A program made the translations under genes and the position numbers. From assembly GCA_018825925.1 (NCBI GenBank), contig JAHKAT010000211.1, forward strand, positions 1-31,283: a stretch of DNA of 31,283 nt, in the 5' to 3' direction. Source of the DNA: Bacteroidota bacterium (lineage in GTDB: Bacteria > Bacteroidota > Bacteroidia > Flavobacteriales_D > Crocinitomicaceae). Below are positions 6,352 through 26,479 of the stretch, one piece after another (the stretch's first letter is position 1; every line of letters starts with the position of its first letter). The notes below the pieces were generated by a model. It had not been told where the DNA came from. It did no database searches and was given only the letters and a program-made list of their open reading frames with translations.

Positions 6352-7278
6352 GTGCAATTGATTTAAATAAATCTGTTCGTATTGTCCGGCCGTTGGATAA
6401 TTCACCATTTCAAAACCCAAATACTGTTGATCCAAAAAAGTGCTATATCCTCCTCTAGAATGAATTATTCGAGATTGCACCAGTATGTTGTCCAAAAGAA
6501 CTTGTTCGAGGCTAGAGATTACCTCTACGCTCGAATTTTGGGGTACTCTATAGTTTTCATTCACTCCAATCAACTTTGAGTCACTATCACTCCAATCTAT
6601 TTGCTTCTCAAACTGTGCTAGTAATTGCGAGCGAAAAGGCTCTGGACCAGTCAGTAAATAGGTAATGAATTTTTTATCTTTTGAAGACTTGTTTTCAAAC
6701 CGACTCGGCCATCCTACAAAAAACAATTTCATTGGAGGTGTTTTCCCAACAGCTGTCATTTTTCCCGATAACAAACTCTGCTCATTGTCCAACAACCAAA
6801 TTTCATCAAATCTCAAAACCGCCTTGTGATGCATCTTATTTACAAGACAATTTAATGAAGGGGTGATATAATTCAATTGATGGGTTATAAAAACTGACTT
6901 TATATTTTTAGAATGCAAACCATAAATGTGGTCTGAGAGAATCAAATCAATTTTATGTGCTTTAATCAAAGCTTCTGCTTTTTTTTGCAAATCCTTTAGT
7001 TGATTTTTCCATTTGGGATACTTCAATAAGATTTCCACTCCAAAAGAATTCAACCCATTAAAATCTACCGAAAAGCCCTCCCAAACTTGAGACGAATAGG
7101 GCGATAAGTACGTTTTTAGCTGATTTAACTGTCTGTTTGTTCCAATAATATGAATTTGATTGTTTTGATTTTGTAAAACCTTTAAAATTGGAATACTCCT
7201 CATTAAATGACCATCTCCCCAATTTAATGCGACAAATAAAATCTTTCTCTCAGAAATTGGATATGGTAGACTAAACAT
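6331..7278 (-). CDS. GT-B glycosyltransferase (GT28 C-terminal-like / MurG-related family)
   Basis: N-terminal WGDGHLMRS, C-terminal SRGGYST and PTAGQYEQ motifs. Confidence 0.7.
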   Translation of the reverse strand: MFSLPYPISERKILFVALNWGDGHLMRSIPILKVLQNQNNQIHIIGTNRQLNQLKTYLSPYSSQVWEGFSVDFNGLNSFGVEILLKYPKWKNQLKDLQKKAEALIKAHKIDLILSDHIYGLHSKNIKSVFITHQLNYITPSLNCLVNKMHHKAVLRFDEIWLLDNEQSLLSGKMTAVGKTPPMKLFFVGWPSRFENKSSKDKKFITYLLTGPEPFRSQLLAQFEKQIDWSDSDSKLIGVNENYRVPQNSSVEVISSLEQVLLDNILVQSRIIHSRGGYSTFLDQQYLGFEMVNYPTAGQYEQIYLNQLHKKKASK

Positions 7279-7388
7279 CGTTAATGTTGGTTAAAATTCT
7301 TCGGAAAAACACCAAAGAAACCTTTTAATTTCAAAACGTTCCAAATCAGTTTCAATAAATTTCTAATTTTATGTACAAAATTGAAAAA

Positions 7389-20747: not shown

Positions 20748-22487
20748 TTATTTGATGAAACTAGATTTAACCACTACTATTTCACGGGCCACATTCAAAA
20801 CCTTTGCGCGTATTTCGACTATTTTACCGGCTGGAAGTTGCCTAAATAAACTTAAAGCTGCTGGAGATAATTCATCCCCAGTTCCTTTGATTGGCAAAAC
20901 CCCCGTATTGACAAACTCAACCGACCATTCCAAAATTTCAAAGGGTGCGTCGAGCGGCACTTCTATCGGAAATTTGACAATAATCTTTTTCGTTGATGGA
21001 GGTAATTTGTCGCCATCCTTTGATCCGCCTAATTGTAAGTCAGGTTTAGGCAATCGACTTACCCTATATTTTACAGATCCTAAATTAACTGTTCGGTTGG
21101 TCAATGATGACTTTCCATAGATTGAAATACTACAATCACGACTGGCACTCATTGGTTTAGCAATCCATGAGTTTCCATTCTGAGTGATTACTACATTCTC
21201 GCCTCTTAATTCCGATTGATCGTATCCCGAAACAGACGCTTGTAAAACATTATTATATCCTTTGTATAAAATATTGTAGGCAGGAATGGAAATAGTGCCC
21301 ATTGGCTGAATAACCTTGACATTTTTACTCCACGGCAATAATTTTTTCACCCCATGTTTATTGGTTATCGAGATCGTTCCATTCAAATTTAAATCACCAC
21401 CTCTCGATGCAGGAATACTAATTTTTCCTTTACCAAAAGCAACATCAGGCACAGTGGCTCCATTCATCGTTACTGACGGCTGTATATCTGTATCATAAGC
21501 CGCCATAAGTACTTCAACGTTAATTGTTTCCCCTTTGGCAACCAATTCCGGTCCGTAAGCCAATGCTATAATTTTATTGAAGGAATATTCACCTCCACCC
21601 ACTCTTTCGAACAAATGTGATACAGCATCCGCTCGAGCTGCTAAAATTTCCTTTTGCAAGGACGACAGAGAAGCAATTGAAGCCACTACGGGCGAATGAT
21701 CGAACGTTTTTCCCAACCAATGAACTCCAGTGACATCATTAACCGTATATCTCTCATTTTTGGACATAGAGCTATATATTTTAAAAAGCACTTCACGATC
21801 CGATGGATTCACATTCCCTTTCAAAACTTCACTTTGAAATTTAGCATTCAACCCTTTTTGATCTTTAAATTCACGAATATCGGGTGTTTTAAAATGGTAT
21901 GAATTGTCTCCGTCTATAGACTCATAATTCGCTACCTTGTTGCATAAAAACGTTTTAAATTGATGATAGTTTTCCCACATCACTAAACCCTTTCCTTGTG
22001 GAGTTTTGATATTATCACCAAACATAATCCGCATGCTCTCGTCGTATTTATCTTGGCCATTTACCTTATTCAAATTCATTTTCCAAGGAATTAATGGAGT
22101 TCGAGGGTTCTTTTTTTCTAAAAGAATTTGATCAGAACCAATTTTTGTTATTTCCTCTCCACTTGCCTTTAAAATTTCCAATTTCAAAGCATCAATTTCA
22201 TTTATTCTTAAGGCTGCCGCACTATCAATTTGATCTATCATCATTAACATGTTTTTAGCACGTACAGCTTTTTCAGCATTTTCTCCACTAGAAGCCACAC
22301 CTTGTAGTTCCATTCTTTTTGCATCTCCTCGGAAATATTCAGATTCATTAGATCGCTGAATATTTTCTTCTATTGAGATAAACGCATCTAATATTGCTTT
22401 TGACACATTTAAAGCTAACAATGCTGTAAGCACCAAATACATCATACCTACCATTTTTTGTCTTGGAGTTTCTTTTCCGCCAGCCAT
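20748..22487 (-). CDS. gldM: Second, stand-alone GldM/PorM paralog (T9SS motor subunit)
   Basis: First 30 aa identical to the operonic GldM (incl. R9, Y17); TFDHSPVVA, YSFNKI.ALAYGP, MAAYD and LPKP motifs; intact 579-aa frame. Confidence 0.88.
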   Translation of the reverse strand: MAGGKETPRQKMVGMMYLVLTALLALNVSKAILDAFISIEENIQRSNESEYFRGDAKRMELQGVASSGENAEKAVRAKNMLMMIDQIDSAAALRINEIDALKLEILKASGEEITKIGSDQILLEKKNPRTPLIPWKMNLNKVNGQDKYDESMRIMFGDNIKTPQGKGLVMWENYHQFKTFLCNKVANYESIDGDNSYHFKTPDIREFKDQKGLNAKFQSEVLKGNVNPSDREVLFKIYSSMSKNERYTVNDVTGVHWLGKTFDHSPVVASIASLSSLQKEILAARADAVSHLFERVGGGEYSFNKIIALAYGPELVAKGETINVEVLMAAYDTDIQPSVTMNGATVPDVAFGKGKISIPASRGGDLNLNGTISITNKHGVKKLLPWSKNVKVIQPMGTISIPAYNILYKGYNNVLQASVSGYDQSELRGENVVITQNGNSWIAKPMSASRDCSISIYGKSSLTNRTVNLGSVKYRVSRLPKPDLQLGGSKDGDKLPPSTKKIIVKFPIEVPLDAPFEILEWSVEFVNTGVLPIKGTGDELSPAALSLFRQLPAGKIVEIRAKVLNVAREIVVVKSSFIK

Positions 22488-22589
22488 CTTCTTCGTTTTA
22501 AGGGTTTAAGAAATAACCTCTAGTTTTAGAAAATGTTACAACTATATTTTTTTAACATAAAAGTTAATCTTTGTTAGCTTAAAACTTAT

Positions 22590-22597
22590 TATATTCG
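22590..22597 (+). promoter_or_regulatory. Probable -7 element (TATATTCG) of phhAB leader
   Basis: One mismatch to TAnnTTTG, 5 nt before leader ATG; a TTTG at 22570-22573 has a shorter than canonical spacer. Confidence 0.45.
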
Positions 22598-22602
22598 TCG
22601 AA

Positions 22603-22659
22603 ATGAAAATGCAAAACACATATTATTATCGAATCCAAAACATGGAATCGATCATATAG
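22603..22659 (+). CDS. Attenuator leader peptide MKMQNTYYYRIQNMESII (Tyr x3)
   Basis: ATG...TAT TAT TAT...TAG; alternative start at ATG 22609; overlaps RNA segments 1 and 2 of the attenuator. Confidence 0.7.
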   Translation: MKMQNTYYYRIQNMESII

Positions 22660-22718
22660 TGTCTTAAAATAAAGATTTACTAACGCAGCCCGATTCTACA
22701 TAGAATCGGGCTTTTTTT
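22628..22718 (+). promoter_or_regulatory. Transcription attenuator (1:2 / 2:3 antiterminator / 3:4 terminator) upstream of phhA
   Basis: 1:2 ATCGAATCC/GGAATCGAT; 2:3 TGGAATCG/CGATTCTA; 3:4 AGCCCGATTCT/AGAATCGGGCT plus T7 ending 8 nt before phhA ATG. Confidence 0.75.
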
Positions 22719-22726
22719 ATTCCCCT

Positions 22727-23455
22727 ATGAAACAACAATTTGAAAAGTACACAGATGAAGATTTACTAGTTTGGCGAACCTTATTTGATCGACAAATACA
22801 TAATCTACAAGACAAATCATGTAAAGAATACCTCATTGCCATTCAGCAAATGGAAGAAATTCTGAACCCTAATAACTTGCCCAATTTTGTGAAAATCAAT
22901 AATTGGTTTGAAACAACTACTAAGTGGGAAATTAAATGTGTACCAGGTTTGATACCCGTTGATGAGTTTTTCTCCTTACTTTCTAAAAAGAAGTTCTGTT
23001 CATCCACTTGGTTGCGTTCTCTGAAACAACTGGATTATTTGGAAGAGCCTGACATGTTTCACGACATATTTGGCCATATTCCACTTCTAAGCCAACCCAT
23101 ATTCTCTGATTTCATGCATGAGTTTGGTAAACTGGGAGCTATATACTCGAGCAATGAACAATTACTCATTCAACTTCAGCGTCTGTACTGGTTTACCATT
23201 GAGTTTGGCTTAATTCAGCAAAATGGTTTAAAAATTTATGGCGCAGGTATAGCCTCTTCTTTTGGCGAATCGAACAGTAGTTTAAGTGTTGGACCGCAAC
23301 GAATCAACTTCGATCTTGAGCAAATACTGAATACCCCTTTCAAAAATGATGAAGTTCAAAATGCTTATTTTGTAATTGAATCATTTGAAGAATTATTTGA
23401 TTCTATTGTTCTTCTCACTAAAAAATGGAAAAACCATGAACTGGCAATTAATTAA
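22727..23455 (+). CDS. phhA: Phenylalanine 4-hydroxylase
   Basis: YLEEPDMFHDIFGHIPLL (His-x4-His) and LYWFTIEFGL (Glu) iron ligands, YGAGIASSFGE. Confidence 0.92.
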   Translation: MKQQFEKYTDEDLLVWRTLFDRQIHNLQDKSCKEYLIAIQQMEEILNPNNLPNFVKINNWFETTTKWEIKCVPGLIPVDEFFSLLSKKKFCSSTWLRSLKQLDYLEEPDMFHDIFGHIPLLSQPIFSDFMHEFGKLGAIYSSNEQLLIQLQRLYWFTIEFGLIQQNGLKIYGAGIASSFGESNSSLSVGPQRINFDLEQILNTPFKNDEVQNAYFVIESFEELFDSIVLLTKKWKNHELAIN

Positions 23456-23666
23456 TGATCATTACATCTATGAAAGAAAGTTCAAGTCACAGACAGAACT
23501 TGCAGAATTTCTAATGAAAATCGCGGTGATTTCAGATCAATTAAATCATCATGCCGATTGGACAATTACCAAGGCTTATCATCTACGAATGCAGGTTTAT
23601 ACCCACGATACTGGTACATTGACAAGCCTCGACCATGAATTGGTCAAACAATTAGAAAAAGTCTAG
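23436..23666 (+). CDS. phhB: Pterin-4-alpha-carbinolamine dehydratase
   Basis: ERKF, LNHHADW, YTHD..TLT.LD motifs; ATG 23436 overlaps the end of phhA. Confidence 0.85.
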   Translation: MNWQLINDHYIYERKFKSQTELAEFLMKIAVISDQLNHHADWTITKAYHLRMQVYTHDTGTLTSLDHELVKQLEKV

Positions 23667-23671
23667 ACATA

Positions 23672-23699
23672 AAAAAGGGAAGCTTTCACTTCCCTTTTT
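23672..23699. terminator. Bidirectional terminator between phhB and gldN
   Basis: AAAAAGGGAAG-CTTTCA-CTTCCCTTTTT. Confidence 0.85.
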
Positions 23700-23716
23700 A
23701 TTGTAAAATCTACACG

Positions 23717-24730
23717 TTAGAACTGCCAAACATCATGTTCTATCGTTCTTATTTCTTCTTTTATTTTTTGACTTTCCATCAAAGCATCTACTCCAGTTCG
23801 GTAGGATTCAATCTTACGATCAAAAACACTACTTTCCTTATAGATAATTGCATTGAAGCGACGTTTCCAAAACAAGTCATCAAAACTCATCCATTGAGCA
23901 TCATTTTGCTCATTGTAAACCAAATAGTTGTTAAAGTAAAAACGACAATGTGGGAAATACAACCAGAATAATTCTTTCAAACCAGTTATTTTTTCAACTC
24001 CACCTTCATCTACTTTATCATAAACTACTGGTGCAATGGCAATAATACGAACATCTAATTGAGAGCGTTCTTTGTCAAAGAACCAATCTTCTTTAATTCG
24101 ATATTGAACAATATCCCCAGATGTATAATAAGTTGTATCACGAGGAGGATAGACGAATTCTTCAACTCCATCAGAGTTAATAAATGTTTTTGGATCACCA
24201 AATTCATCTGTTAAAGCTATATCACTTTGCGCCCCTAATCGACCGAAGTAATACAAAACTGCATCTCTGAAGATTGAATCAGTATAATAATTCTGTCCTG
24301 GAAGTGGATCAATAGGGTATTTTAACTGGTCACCATCTTTTTCACCAAAAACATTGTTTGGGTTATAAGGAGAGAACAATCTCAAGTCACCAAGTAAAAC
24401 GTGATTTCTTATCACTGTCCACAAAGACCATCGATCTGTGTTACGAATCCATTCTCCAGTTGTTGAAATTTCATCCAAAGGAAAATACAATGAGTGATTA
24501 ATTTTTTCACGCAAGTCTATATATTCCCATGCACGTTTTCCCCAGATATAATCTGCCTCACGTACATATTCATATGGTACTAAACGTTTGGTTGGAATAT
24601 GTTCACGAATGTAAACTCCATCAACAATACCATCAGATGGTACATTAACCGGTCCACCGTTTAGTTCAGGTTGCGCATACGCTACCCCAACTAATCCAAT
24701 CGCAATGATGTTAATAAATAGACTTTTCAT
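23717..24730 (-). CDS. gldN: Gliding motility/T9SS protein GldN (PorN)
   Basis: READ..WGKR.WEYIDLREKINH, YRIKEDWFFDKERS, LFWLYFP, SFDDLFWKRRF; last gene of gldKLMN. Confidence 0.92.
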   Translation of the reverse strand: MKSLFINIIAIGLVGVAYAQPELNGGPVNVPSDGIVDGVYIREHIPTKRLVPYEYVREADYIWGKRAWEYIDLREKINHSLYFPLDEISTTGEWIRNTDRWSLWTVIRNHVLLGDLRLFSPYNPNNVFGEKDGDQLKYPIDPLPGQNYYTDSIFRDAVLYYFGRLGAQSDIALTDEFGDPKTFINSDGVEEFVYPPRDTTYYTSGDIVQYRIKEDWFFDKERSQLDVRIIAIAPVVYDKVDEGGVEKITGLKELFWLYFPHCRFYFNNYLVYNEQNDAQWMSFDDLFWKRRFNAIIYKESSVFDRKIESYRTGVDALMESQKIKEEIRTIEHDVWQF

Positions 24731-24742
24731 ACTCTTTTCAAT

Positions 24743-26479
24743 TTATATAGTAAACGCTCCCGTTTTCTTTCTTTTCACCCCATCCGGACCAACTACCTCT
24801 GTAAAGAAAGTAATCACTGAACCAGGTTTTGCTTGTTTTAATAAAGACGACGCTGGTCCATTTAAAACATCTCCAGAACCTTTCGGAGGAGCACCAGGAT
24901 TACCTGGAATAATCAACTCCCAAGAAACAATTCTAAATGTTGCATTCAAAGGAATTTCAGGTGGATATTTCGAGAACAATCTTGTTTCAGCTCGCGAAGC
25001 TTTTTCACCTGCTTGAGCTGCACCAAAGTACAGTTCAGGATTTGGTAAATTTGAAACTCTAAATTCAAATGAACCCAAAGAAACAGTTTTATTCGTTATT
25101 GAAGATTTACCCGAAACATTGATTTTTGCCACTTTTACTTTATCAGGCGAAGCGATCCATCCAGTGCCAGATTTTGACAAAGAACCACCATTCATAGTTA
25201 AAACGGTTTGGTCGTAACCTGAAGCAACTGCATCTACTTTATTCGGATAACCTCTGTACAATACATTCAACTCAGGTAAAGAAACCGTACCCATTGGTTT
25301 CATAATCTTGATGTTTTTCTCCCAAGGTAAAGTTTTCGGAATACCCGATTTGTTTCGTATAGTTATTGTCCCTTTCAAATTCATTTCTGTTGCTCCTGAC
25401 GCCTTTGTTTTCACAAAACCTTTTCCGTCTCTAACTTCTGTAACGTTAGCTCCGTTTAAAGTTACACTCGGTTGTTTATCTGAATCATACGCAGCCATTA
25501 AAACCTGTACTTCAATTTCATCACCTGAGTTTGCTAATTCCGGACCGTAAGCCAAAGCCATGATCTTATTAAATGAATACTCTCCACCAGAAATACGACT
25601 ACGAATCAAAGCTACAGCATCTGCTCGGGCTGTCAATATTTCTTTTTGTAATGAAGATAAAGATGCAATTGCAGCAACGACTGGAGAGTGGTCAAAAGTT
25701 TTACCAATCCAGTGAACATTTTTCACTTCATGTACTTCTGATCTTTCTTCTTTCGTTAAAGAACCATAGATTTTTTTAATGGCCTCTTTATCATCTTGGT
25801 TAACGTTGGATGCAGCGATTGCTTTATCTACTTGTTTATTCAAATCTGCTTGATCTTTAAATGCCGTTACATTTGGGGCTTTAAAATAAAAACTTGGTTG
25901 ACCTTCACCTCCAGGATACTTCGCAATCAACTCTACCAAATCATTTCTGTATTTGTTAAAGTTATTCCAAAGCAATAAACCTTTTCCTTTTGGATTGGTT
26001 GTTTCCTCTCCAATTAAAATTTGCATTGGTTCATCGTACTTATCCATACTTTGAACATGTGACAAATTCATTCTAATTGGTTTTAGTGGACGAGTTGGAT
26101 CATATTTTTTAGTGATTATCGCCTCCTCTCCTGTCAACGTTAAATCTTCACCACAAACAGTTAAGATTTCCAATTTCAAGTCATCTATTTCTTTGATTCT
26201 CGCCGCGGTAATTTTATCTATTTCCTCAACTATTTTCACCAAAGTTTTTGCCTTTTTCGCACGCTCAGGCACCGAATTATCTACCGCTACTTCTTTCAAT
26301 TCAGACTCTTTCTCATTTCCACGGAAAAATTCTGTTTCGTTCGCTTTTTGGATATTTTCTTCAATTGCTACGAATGCATCCAATATGGATTTTGATACGT
26401 TCAAGGCTAACAATGCGGTGAGTACCAAGTACATCATCCCGACCATCTTCTGCCTCGGCGTTTCTTTACCTCCTGCCAT
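24743..26479 (-). CDS. gldM: T9SS/gliding motor subunit GldM (PorM), operonic copy
   Basis: MAGGKETPRQKMVGMMYLVLTALLALNVS single TM helix; NVLYRGYPN and LPNP motifs; between gldL and gldN. Confidence 0.95.
   Translation of the reverse strand: MAGGKETPRQKMVGMMYLVLTALLALNVSKSILDAFVAIEENIQKANETEFFRGNEKESELKEVAVDNSVPERAKKAKTLVKIVEEIDKITAARIKEIDDLKLEILTVCGEDLTLTGEEAIITKKYDPTRPLKPIRMNLSHVQSMDKYDEPMQILIGEETTNPKGKGLLLWNNFNKYRNDLVELIAKYPGGEGQPSFYFKAPNVTAFKDQADLNKQVDKAIAASNVNQDDKEAIKKIYGSLTKEERSEVHEVKNVHWIGKTFDHSPVVAAIASLSSLQKEILTARADAVALIRSRISGGEYSFNKIMALAYGPELANSGDEIEVQVLMAAYDSDKQPSVTLNGANVTEVRDGKGFVKTKASGATEMNLKGTITIRNKSGIPKTLPWEKNIKIMKPMGTVSLPELNVLYRGYPNKVDAVASGYDQTVLTMNGGSLSKSGTGWIASPDKVKVAKINVSGKSSITNKTVSLGSFEFRVSNLPNPELYFGAAQAGEKASRAETRLFSKYPPEIPLNATFRIVSWELIIPGNPGAPPKGSGDVLNGPASSLLKQAKPGSVITFFTEVVGPDGVKRKKTGAFTI

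Follow-up and report, generated by a model that had tools for sequence, protein, structure and literature searches.

In a bacterium of the family Crocinitomicaceae (phylum Bacteroidota; assembly GCA_018825925.1), the gene for phenylalanine hydroxylase, phhA, and the adjoining phhB are very probably controlled by a functional ribosome-mediated attenuator that senses tyrosine. We analyzed the whole of contig JAHKAT010000211.1, a stretch of 31,283 nucleotides (nt) that we call the window. All positions refer to it unless another contig is named. Upstream of phhA, a short open reading frame (ORF) with a run of tyrosine codons is followed by an intrinsic terminator. A preliminary description of this DNA, made from the sequence alone, had interpreted this arrangement as a tyrosine-sensing attenuator. 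We find that the Tyr-rich mini-ORF and the terminator are conserved in relatives, that the antiterminator lies at a fixed distance from the Tyr codons, that it co-varies with the terminator arm, and that the leaders fold as expected in each of three states, all of which argues for the attenuator. At the level of sequence, the architecture is that of a classical leader-peptide attenuator in every respect.

A Tyr-codon leader and a terminator upstream of phhA

The intergenic region between phhA and the divergent GldM-like gene (20748-22487, minus strand) spans 22488-22726. On its plus strand is a leader ORF of 18 codons plus TAG, MKMQNTYYYRIQNMESII (22603-22659), with its ATG at 22603 and its TAG at 22657-22659. 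Residues 7-9 of the leader are Tyr, encoded by TAT TAT TAT (22621-22629); these would be the regulatory codons. The ORF has no codon for Phe or Trp. Downstream is a terminator with an 11-base-pair stem, in which AGCCCGATTCT (22687-22697) pairs with AGAATCGGGCT (22702-22712) around the loop ACAT, and a run of seven Ts (T7; 22712-22718). Only 8 nt (22719-22726) separate the T7 from the start codon of phhA (ATG at 22727). This is the single terminator-like site that a pattern scan identified in 22400-23800, and there is no plus-strand gene 5' of it for it to serve. The leader ORF, the three TAT codons, the stem, the T7, and the 8-nt spacer are all where the preliminary description had placed them, and its observation is confirmed.

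Four segments of the plus strand can pair in alternative ways. Segment 1 (ATCGAATCC, 22628-22636) shares bases with the last Tyr codon; in the minimum free energy (MFE) structures, its partner is segment 2. Segment 2 (TGGAATCGAT, 22643-22652) has either segment 1 or the 5' arm of the terminator as its partner; the latter pairing, which was seen in constrained folds, is the antiterminator. The terminator 5' arm is segment 3 (AGCCCGATTCTA, 22687-22698), and segment 4 (22702-22718) consists of the 3' arm, AGAATCGGGCT, and the T7. Segments 3 and 4 were identified from the sequence, from folding, and from the terminator scan.

When we folded the leader (22590-22729) with RNAfold and no constraints, it formed the 1:2 hairpin and the terminator, at -33.6 kcal/mol (z = -5.0 against 200 shuffles). 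The 1:2 helix joins 22628-22636 to 22644-22652, with one A.A mismatch, and contributes -9.6 kcal/mol when folded alone; the terminator alone is at -18.2 kcal/mol. If a ribosome occupies either the first or last Tyr codon while the 3' arm is still absent, the MFE structure is a 2:3 helix of 8 pairs, including one G.U, between 22643-22650 and 22691-22698 (-11.3 kcal/mol). If the ribosome is placed at the stop codon, the terminator 5' arm is unpaired. The 1:2 and 3:4 helices that had been proposed for this leader are the unconstrained MFE, and blocking segment 1 with a ribosome yields the proposed 2:3 helix at exactly the same coordinates. Only the core of the proposed antiterminator held up, though: its suggested extension by TAGT/ACTA and TCTT/AAGA is instead a separate small hairpin, nested in the antiterminator loop and present in both states.

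We propose that this attenuator reads the supply of charged tRNA-Tyr and thereby controls phhA-phhB. Transcription would start at or just upstream of the leader AUG, as the promoter boxes discussed below indicate, and a ribosome would translate the 18-codon leader while RNA polymerase proceeds. When Tyr-tRNA is plentiful, the ribosome would reach the TAG at 22657 and cover segment 2 (22643-22652). The terminator (22687-22712 plus T7) would then form, and transcription would stop 8 nt before phhA. If the leader is not translated, 1:2 pairing would allow the terminator to form as well. When Tyr-tRNA is scarce, a ribosome stalled on the TAT codons (22621-22629) would hide segment 1 and leave segment 2, about 16 nt downstream, free to capture the terminator 5' arm before the 3' arm is made. 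The resulting read-through would lead to synthesis of PhhA and PhhB and to the conversion of Phe to Tyr.

The leader is conserved across several orders of Bacteroidota

An orthologous short phhA is present in 14 of 60 relatives, and 12 of these 14 loci have a Tyr-cluster mini-ORF and then a terminator directly 5' of phhA. The clusters in these leaders are YYY, YYNY, YLYY, FYY, YYRY, YYYY, and YYWLY.

For a wider set, we scanned one genome per species across the Bacteroidota, which gave 80 further phhA loci. These are from the Flavobacteriales (Crocinitomicaceae, Vicingaceae, Cryomorphaceae, and Flavobacteriaceae such as Psychroflexus and Planktosalinus), the Cytophagales, the Chitinophagales/Saprospiraceae, and the Sphingobacteriaceae (Sphingobacteriales). 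We defined a Tyr mini-ORF as an ORF of 8-45 codons that starts with ATG, has at least 3 Tyr in 5 codons, and is at most 200 nt from phhA. Such a mini-ORF is present in 35/80 loci, while dinucleotide-preserving shuffles gave 0.9 expected (maximum 3 in 50 shuffles) and the reverse strand gave 0. No amino acid other than Tyr is comparably enriched in the mini-ORFs of the 80 loci, and the enrichment of Tyr is specific to frame and strand. Using a strict definition, with a Tyr cluster and then a terminator at most 80 nt past the stop codon, we found 37 positives among the 80 loci. Some of the "negatives" are variants that have a GTG start or YY or YxYW clusters. Tyr codons, mini-ORF, and terminator are kept upstream of phhA across several orders of Bacteroidota, in line with the preliminary description. 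Carriers of the leader that can be grown in culture include Psychroflexus tropicus, P. gondwanensis, Planktosalinus lacus, and Marivirga aurantiaca (loci L055, L059, L048, and L109).

The 37 leader peptides are 14-27 amino acids long and have little in common beyond the Tyr run. The Tyr cluster spans 3-5 codons and starts at codon 7-8 in most of the leaders; the number of Tyr codons varies. Tyr accounts for 21% of the residues, compared to 2% for Phe and 1% for Trp. Mean column identity in the leader alignment is 45%, and the PhhA identities are 44-68%. As far as sequence comparison goes, conserved regulatory codons within a drifting peptide are the signature of a codon-sensing leader.

Three other loci have unusual arrangements. 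In a congener (locus L015 of genome G005), the -7 box and the terminator are kept, and the mini-ORF is only MILI*, with no Tyr codon. This looks like either a decayed leader that leaves phhA permanently terminated or an assembly-edge effect, as the contig ends inside phhA. Loci L129 and L131 (genomes G319 and G216, from the tyrA-containing family f26) have leader-like ORFs, MNPTPRTYIHHSHYYLQ and MNPTPRTYVHHSYHFLQ, that mix His and Tyr codons, and in each a terminator lies 95-163 nt before phhA. Within the bacterium's own genome, a script scan for further Tyr leaders returned only the phhA leader, plus two unconvincing ORFs on contigs C29 and C193.

The geometry of the switch and its co-variation

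The spacing of the elements is conserved in the 37 strict positives. The best partner of the terminator 5' arm is located at about +16 to +26 nt, counted from the first base of the last Tyr codon. In most loci, segment 2 ends 5-15 nt ahead of the leader stop. A ribosome at the stop codon would have segment 2 within its footprint, and segment 1 abuts the last Tyr codon. Also, segment 2 has stronger pairing with the terminator arm of its own locus than with those of other loci (-10.1 vs. -8.2 kcal/mol; permutation p < 1e-4).

For column-wise analysis, we used a plain, unfitted MAFFT alignment of 36 leaders (alignment A2). In the terminator, 90% of the cells of A2 are paired, with compensatory changes at 10/10 stem pairs. 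In the antiterminator, 71% of cells are paired, and this is the maximum, at slide 0. Because the alignment is too gappy in segment 1 for column-wise co-variation, we judged helix 1:2 by folding each locus.

We also folded each of the 37 loci in three states. In the full-length MFE structures, the terminator forms at 96% of arm positions, and 32/37 loci have segment 2 paired upstream, mostly with a partner at about +3 to +10 relative to the last Tyr codon. Placing a ribosome on that codon led to upstream pairing of at least half of the 5' arm in all 37 loci. With a ribosome at the stop codon, the 5' arm is free in 36/37. As a control, we shuffled the sequence that separates the Tyr codons from the terminator. 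The "on" state then appeared in just 55% of cases (vs. 37/37 for the real leaders), the energy was -8.1 instead of -14.1 kcal/mol, and the position of the antiterminator partner was scattered (median +32 vs. +19 observed). Covariation, which the preliminary description had named as a check, is seen in the terminator as compensatory changes in every stem pair and in the antiterminator as a preference for the cognate arm, at a conserved position.

The leader ORF may lack a 5' untranslated region

Within the window, a candidate Bacteroidota -7 box, TATATTCG (22590-22597, plus strand), lies 5 nt before the leader ATG and has one mismatch to TAnnTTTG. It occupies the same position as the exact box of a congener. 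An alternative candidate, AATCTTTG (22567-22574, plus strand), is also upstream of the mini-ORF. Among the 37 strict positives, 26 loci have an exact TAnnTTTG no more than 60 nt upstream of the leader's start codon, and in 22 of them the gap from the G of the box to the ATG is only 4-9 nt.

In Flavobacterium johnsoniae, the -7 box is at -12 to -5, with 4-5 nt between the box and the start site (PMC6847099). Therefore, where the gap between the box and the ATG is 4-5 nt, the AUG is predicted to be at the 5' end of the transcript itself. About 5.5% of the mRNAs in F. psychrophilum are leaderless (PMC9723704). These promoter sequences predict that the transcript from which the leader ORF would be translated is leaderless, or nearly so, in most of the relatives.

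phhAB as a probable source of tyrosine

We did not find tyrA (PF02153) in the bacterium's own genome, which is 87% complete, or in 10/10 congeners, one of which is 99% complete. Similarly, neither pheA (PF00800) nor hmgA (the homogentisate dioxygenase domain, PF04209) was found in the own genome or in the 99%-complete congener. With neither tyrA nor pheA found, PhhA probably provides the cell's sole route to Tyr; as pheA was not found, the Phe that it uses is probably imported rather than made.

Just 5 of 61 relatives have tyrA above the cut-off. Of the 11 relatives with a Tyr leader, 2 have pheA and 1 has the homogentisate dioxygenase domain. One relative (G058) has both tyrA and phhA, and it has no Tyr leader.

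We drew a class-wide sample of 401 Bacteroidia genomes, evenly chosen and at least 90% complete; an unpublished genome (G146) is included in this tally only. In this sample, phhA is present in 56/401 genomes and tyrA in 85/401, and we fetched 54 phhA loci. A Tyr leader with a terminator was found in 21/39 of the phhA genomes without tyrA but in only 1/15 of those with tyrA, although these are counts of related genomes that are not independent. The phhA loci without a leader often abut another gene. One of them comes after a gene that resembles fumarylacetoacetase, a hint at a catabolic context.

A role for phenylalanine hydroxylase in tyrosine biosynthesis is supported by genetic data from Dyella and from a member of the Bacteroidota, Echinicola vietnamensis (GapMind preprint, 10.1101/741918). 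The preliminary description had proposed that phhAB is a Tyr-biosynthetic operon and had raised the question of whether the genome lacks tyrA. tyrA was not found here or in the congeners, the homogentisate pathway was not found here and its dioxygenase domain occurs in 1/11 leader carriers, and the leader is mostly found in tyrA-less genomes. These genomic patterns support the view that phhAB would be wired as a tyrosine-supply operon.

More generally, pheA is present in 8/61 relatives, and tyrA is as sparse as noted above among the 401 Bacteroidia genomes. This low frequency of tyrA and pheA suggests either widespread auxotrophy for aromatic amino acids or unrecognised routes in the Bacteroidia.

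Points against the attenuator and alternative explanations

Several observations weigh against a tyrosine-sensing attenuator. The antiterminator is weaker than the terminator (-11.3 vs. -18.2 kcal/mol), and once the full leader has been transcribed, the terminator is favored thermodynamically, even with a stalled ribosome. Because the terminator wins once the leader is complete, read-through must be kinetic, as it is in classical attenuators, and rely on trapping. The -7 box of the window itself, TATATTCG, is imperfect. Column-wise co-variation of the antiterminator on A2 is moderate, with a score that was matched by 5/500 shuffles; the number of antiterminator pairs that changed on both sides was matched by 163/500 shuffles, and kinship inflates such tests. 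Around half of the sampled phhA loci, including that of the congener G005, are without such a leader, so the switch is not obligatory. Finally, with a genome that is 87% complete, the absence of tyrA and pheA is unproven.

Could the leader respond to other signals? In a broader aromatic attenuator, ribosomes would stall at Tyr, Phe, or Trp codons alike, and the signal would be general aromatic starvation. The phhA leaders of some relatives do have Phe or Trp beside the Tyr run (FYY, YYYW, YSYWF, or YYWLY), and truly mixed F/Y/W leaders are found at the pheA(-tyrA) operons of relatives. We nevertheless consider this quite unlikely, as the window's leader has neither Phe nor Trp codons, Tyr outnumbers both by far in the 37 phhA leaders (21% vs. 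2% and 1%), and it would be counter-productive to induce a Phe-consuming enzyme during Phe starvation. Another idea is that the nascent peptide itself is active, as with TnaC or arrest peptides, or that the Tyr run is slowly decoded, so that the leader would sense free Phe/Tyr or set a constitutive level of read-through. A weak N-T/A-Y-Y-Y context does recur in many leaders. But outside the Tyr run, the peptides vary freely in sequence and in length (14-27 amino acids), and the number of Tyr varies too. What is conserved is the distance in nucleotides from the Tyr codons to segment 2, which is the mark of codon-based sensing. Also, the terminator is intrinsic and not of the Rho type. An active peptide or slow decoding is very unlikely given these features.

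It is highly improbable that the ORF is incidental and that the terminator is controlled by a riboswitch, by a T-box-like contact with tRNA, or by an RNA-binding protein. There is a sub-threshold likeness in Rfam to a PyrR site (24 bits vs. a cut-off of 54) and to the trpB motif (22.5 vs. 59), yet no Rfam family reaches its gathering score and no conserved sequence resembling a ligand pocket is visible. Instead, conservation is seen for an in-frame start codon, for the Tyr run, and for a stop codon that lets the terminating ribosome cover segment 2, and the Tyr enrichment is specific to one frame and one strand. As for chance, TAT is common in AT-rich intergenic DNA, and the divergent upstream gene makes for a promoter-rich spacer, so an orphan terminator or a small RNA might lie beside phhA together with an accidental AT-rich ORF. 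We give this almost no weight: mini-ORFs are found at 35/80 loci vs. 0.9 expected, the architecture is kept across orders, and no upstream plus-strand gene could use the terminator. The low identities (45% mean column identity for the leaders and 44-68% for PhhA) argue against recent horizontal copies.

Comparison with known systems

Leader-peptide attenuators are textbook mechanisms for Trp, His, Phe, Leu, Thr, and Ile/Val. The tyrosine-sensing attenuator that we propose resembles the enterobacterial ones (trpL-trpEDCBA, pheL-pheA, hisL, thrL, and ilvL, as in the Yanofsky model) in several ways. It has a short ORF in which codons for the end product form a run, four segments that give 1:2, 2:3, and 3:4 alternatives among which the position of the ribosome would decide, an intrinsic terminator just before the first structural gene, and an antiterminator that is weaker than the terminator. 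In contrast to the enterobacterial attenuators, the phhAB leader would sense tyrosine, and its target is phenylalanine hydroxylase and its pterin-recycling partner instead of an operon of the chorismate pathway. Furthermore, the host belongs to the Bacteroidota and does without Shine-Dalgarno-led initiation, and the mini-ORF of most relatives is predicted to start at most ~5 nt from the 5' end of the transcript.

Full-text literature searches turned up no published Tyr leader on phhA and no tyrosine-specific attenuator; two older comparative works that might hold one were outside the scope of these searches. Among published cases with a Tyr codon, the nearest is the aroR leader of Corynebacterium glutamicum, upstream of aroF, which contains Phe-Tyr-Phe. 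In the work of Neshat et al. (2014), as summarized in PMC11802643, aroR senses Phe limitation, and Tyr availability is reportedly without effect. Both are leader-peptide attenuators, or putative ones, of an aromatic amino acid gene with a Tyr codon in the leader, but the regulatory codons of the window's phhA leader are for Tyr only.

Leader-peptide attenuators have been reported in flavobacteria, for example for ilvE in Flavobacterium psychrophilum, though not for phhA (PMC9723704). The ilvE leader and the pheA leaders of this order share phylum, class of mechanism, and type of promoter with the putative phhA attenuator. Unlike it, the ilvE, pheA, and His leaders regulate canonical biosynthetic operons, and their 5' leaders are ordinary (at least 17 nt from the -7 box to the ATG in the cases read here).

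Bacterial phenylalanine hydroxylase is usually treated as catabolic. In Pseudomonas, phhABC is induced by Phe/Tyr for catabolism, via the protein activator PhhR (a sigma-54 activator). The enzyme pair, PhhA and PhhB, is the same, but the window's phhAB has no adjacent regulator gene, and the geometry of the switch predicts induction by a lack of Tyr. Specifically, no phhR-like gene adjoins phhAB: at this locus, the neighbors are the divergent GldM-like gene and the convergent gldN. The Tyr T-box leaders of Firmicutes (upstream of tyrS and other genes) likewise use a terminator and an antiterminator to read the charging of tRNA-Tyr. T-boxes bind uncharged tRNA directly and do not require translation. 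An Rfam scan detected no T-box in the window.

We rejected a known riboswitch, T-box, or leader family for this region, as there was only sub-threshold Rfam noise, both in the whole window at gathering thresholds and in 22400-22800 at E <= 10. The hits to Trp_leader (RF00513; 16.2 bits vs. a cut-off of 41) and Thr_leader (RF00506; 15.4 vs. 55) were below the gathering thresholds.

Other amino acid leaders in this genome and its relatives

On the minus strand of contig C6 of the same genome, a leader with five His codons, MNFLNLHHHHHKCPQA, and a terminator lie directly upstream of a hisG-like gene. In reverse-complement coordinates, the leader is at 7261-7311 and the terminator is at 7349-7376, and a -7 box, TACATTTG, precedes the ATG by 17 nt. 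The arrangement has the appearance of a classical His attenuator. So, judging from this locus, the organism appears to use leader-peptide attenuation elsewhere.

We also fetched eight pheA loci from relatives (L167-L174, from G056, G013, G046, G002, G038, G017, G058, and G060). In 7/8, a mixed Phe/Tyr/Trp leader, such as MKTNKTFFFWYFYYGLDHRG or MVSFHPSRFYYFFYTQPPARD, and a terminator precede pheA; L172 abuts another gene. L171 has two leader-terminator units in tandem before pheA. In the three of these genomes that have tyrA (G056, G013, and G058), it is located ~2 kb downstream of pheA. The 5' leaders at pheA are ordinary, which sets them apart from those of the phhA mini-ORFs. If each leader reports on the product of its own operon, one expects mixed aromatic codons for pheA(-tyrA) and almost purely Tyr codons for phhA.

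The phhAB operon and its surroundings

phhA (22727-23455, plus strand) encodes a monomeric-type phenylalanine 4-monooxygenase of 242 amino acids (Pfam Biopterin_H, 1.5e-43). Its score for TIGR01267 is 258 bits, which is slightly below the cut-off of 264.75, and its best solved relative is the phenylalanine hydroxylase of Chromobacterium violaceum (1LTU; 4.5e-61). The invariant residues include H112, H117, and E159, which we take to be the iron ligands of the enzyme family. phhB (23436-23666, plus strand) encodes a pterin-4a-carbinolamine dehydratase of 76 amino acids (Pfam Pterin_4a and NCBIfam NF002018). The true start of phhB is the ATG at 23436, which gives a 20-nt overlap with the end of phhA.

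Between phhB and the convergent gldN is a hairpin, GGGAAG/CTTCCC, flanked by A6 and T5 (23671-23699). It is likely, from its sequence and position, to be a bidirectional terminator that is shared by the phhAB operon and gldN. The terminator scan did not call this hairpin (its T window is shorter than required). As read from the sequence, the predicted transcription unit is leader, terminator, phhA, phhB, and terminator.

phhAB sits between two full-length GldM-like genes (20748-22487 and 24743-26479) that are in the opposite orientation, and gldN (23717-24730) comes after the second of these. An RNA run that we reached via a related protein, with its reads aligned at 80% likeness, had coverage on the conserved N-terminus of GldM only and none on the leader or phhA.

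Many relatives (L017-L024) have a long paralog, an aromatic amino acid hydroxylase of ~590 amino acids, instead of or besides the short phhA. The phhA of F. psychrophilum, THC0290_0759, is of the long form (~585 amino acids); it has a 20-nt untranslated region, flat expression, and no attenuator (PMC9723704).

Implications

While the mechanism is a textbook one, the amino acid sensed, the target operon, the association with a lack of tyrA, and the predicted leaderless mini-ORF are undescribed as far as we found. Going beyond the attenuator itself, we tentatively suggest that in many Bacteroidota in which tyrA (and often pheA) was not found, PhhA may be the sole source of Tyr, under a Tyr-specific attenuator whose leader peptide is encoded at the very start of a leaderless transcript (AUG at or near +1), so that ribosome loading would be tied to the first nucleotides. 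If this is true, it would be the first leader-peptide attenuator that is specific for tyrosine and also the first attenuator to rely on leaderless initiation. A leaderless mini-ORF, as predicted here, would be a simple test case for the coupling of transcription and translation in a phylum whose members initiate without Shine-Dalgarno sequences. The motif could also enter libraries of RNA families, which would lead to the annotation of these 5' regions and mini-ORFs.

A conserved switch that responds to Tyr starvation would be regulatory evidence that PhhA is an anabolic or salvage route to Tyr in many tyrA-less Bacteroidota. This fits the genetic hints from GapMind (10.1101/741918) and would bear on predictions of auxotrophy and on how the metabolism of marine and freshwater flavobacteria is modeled.

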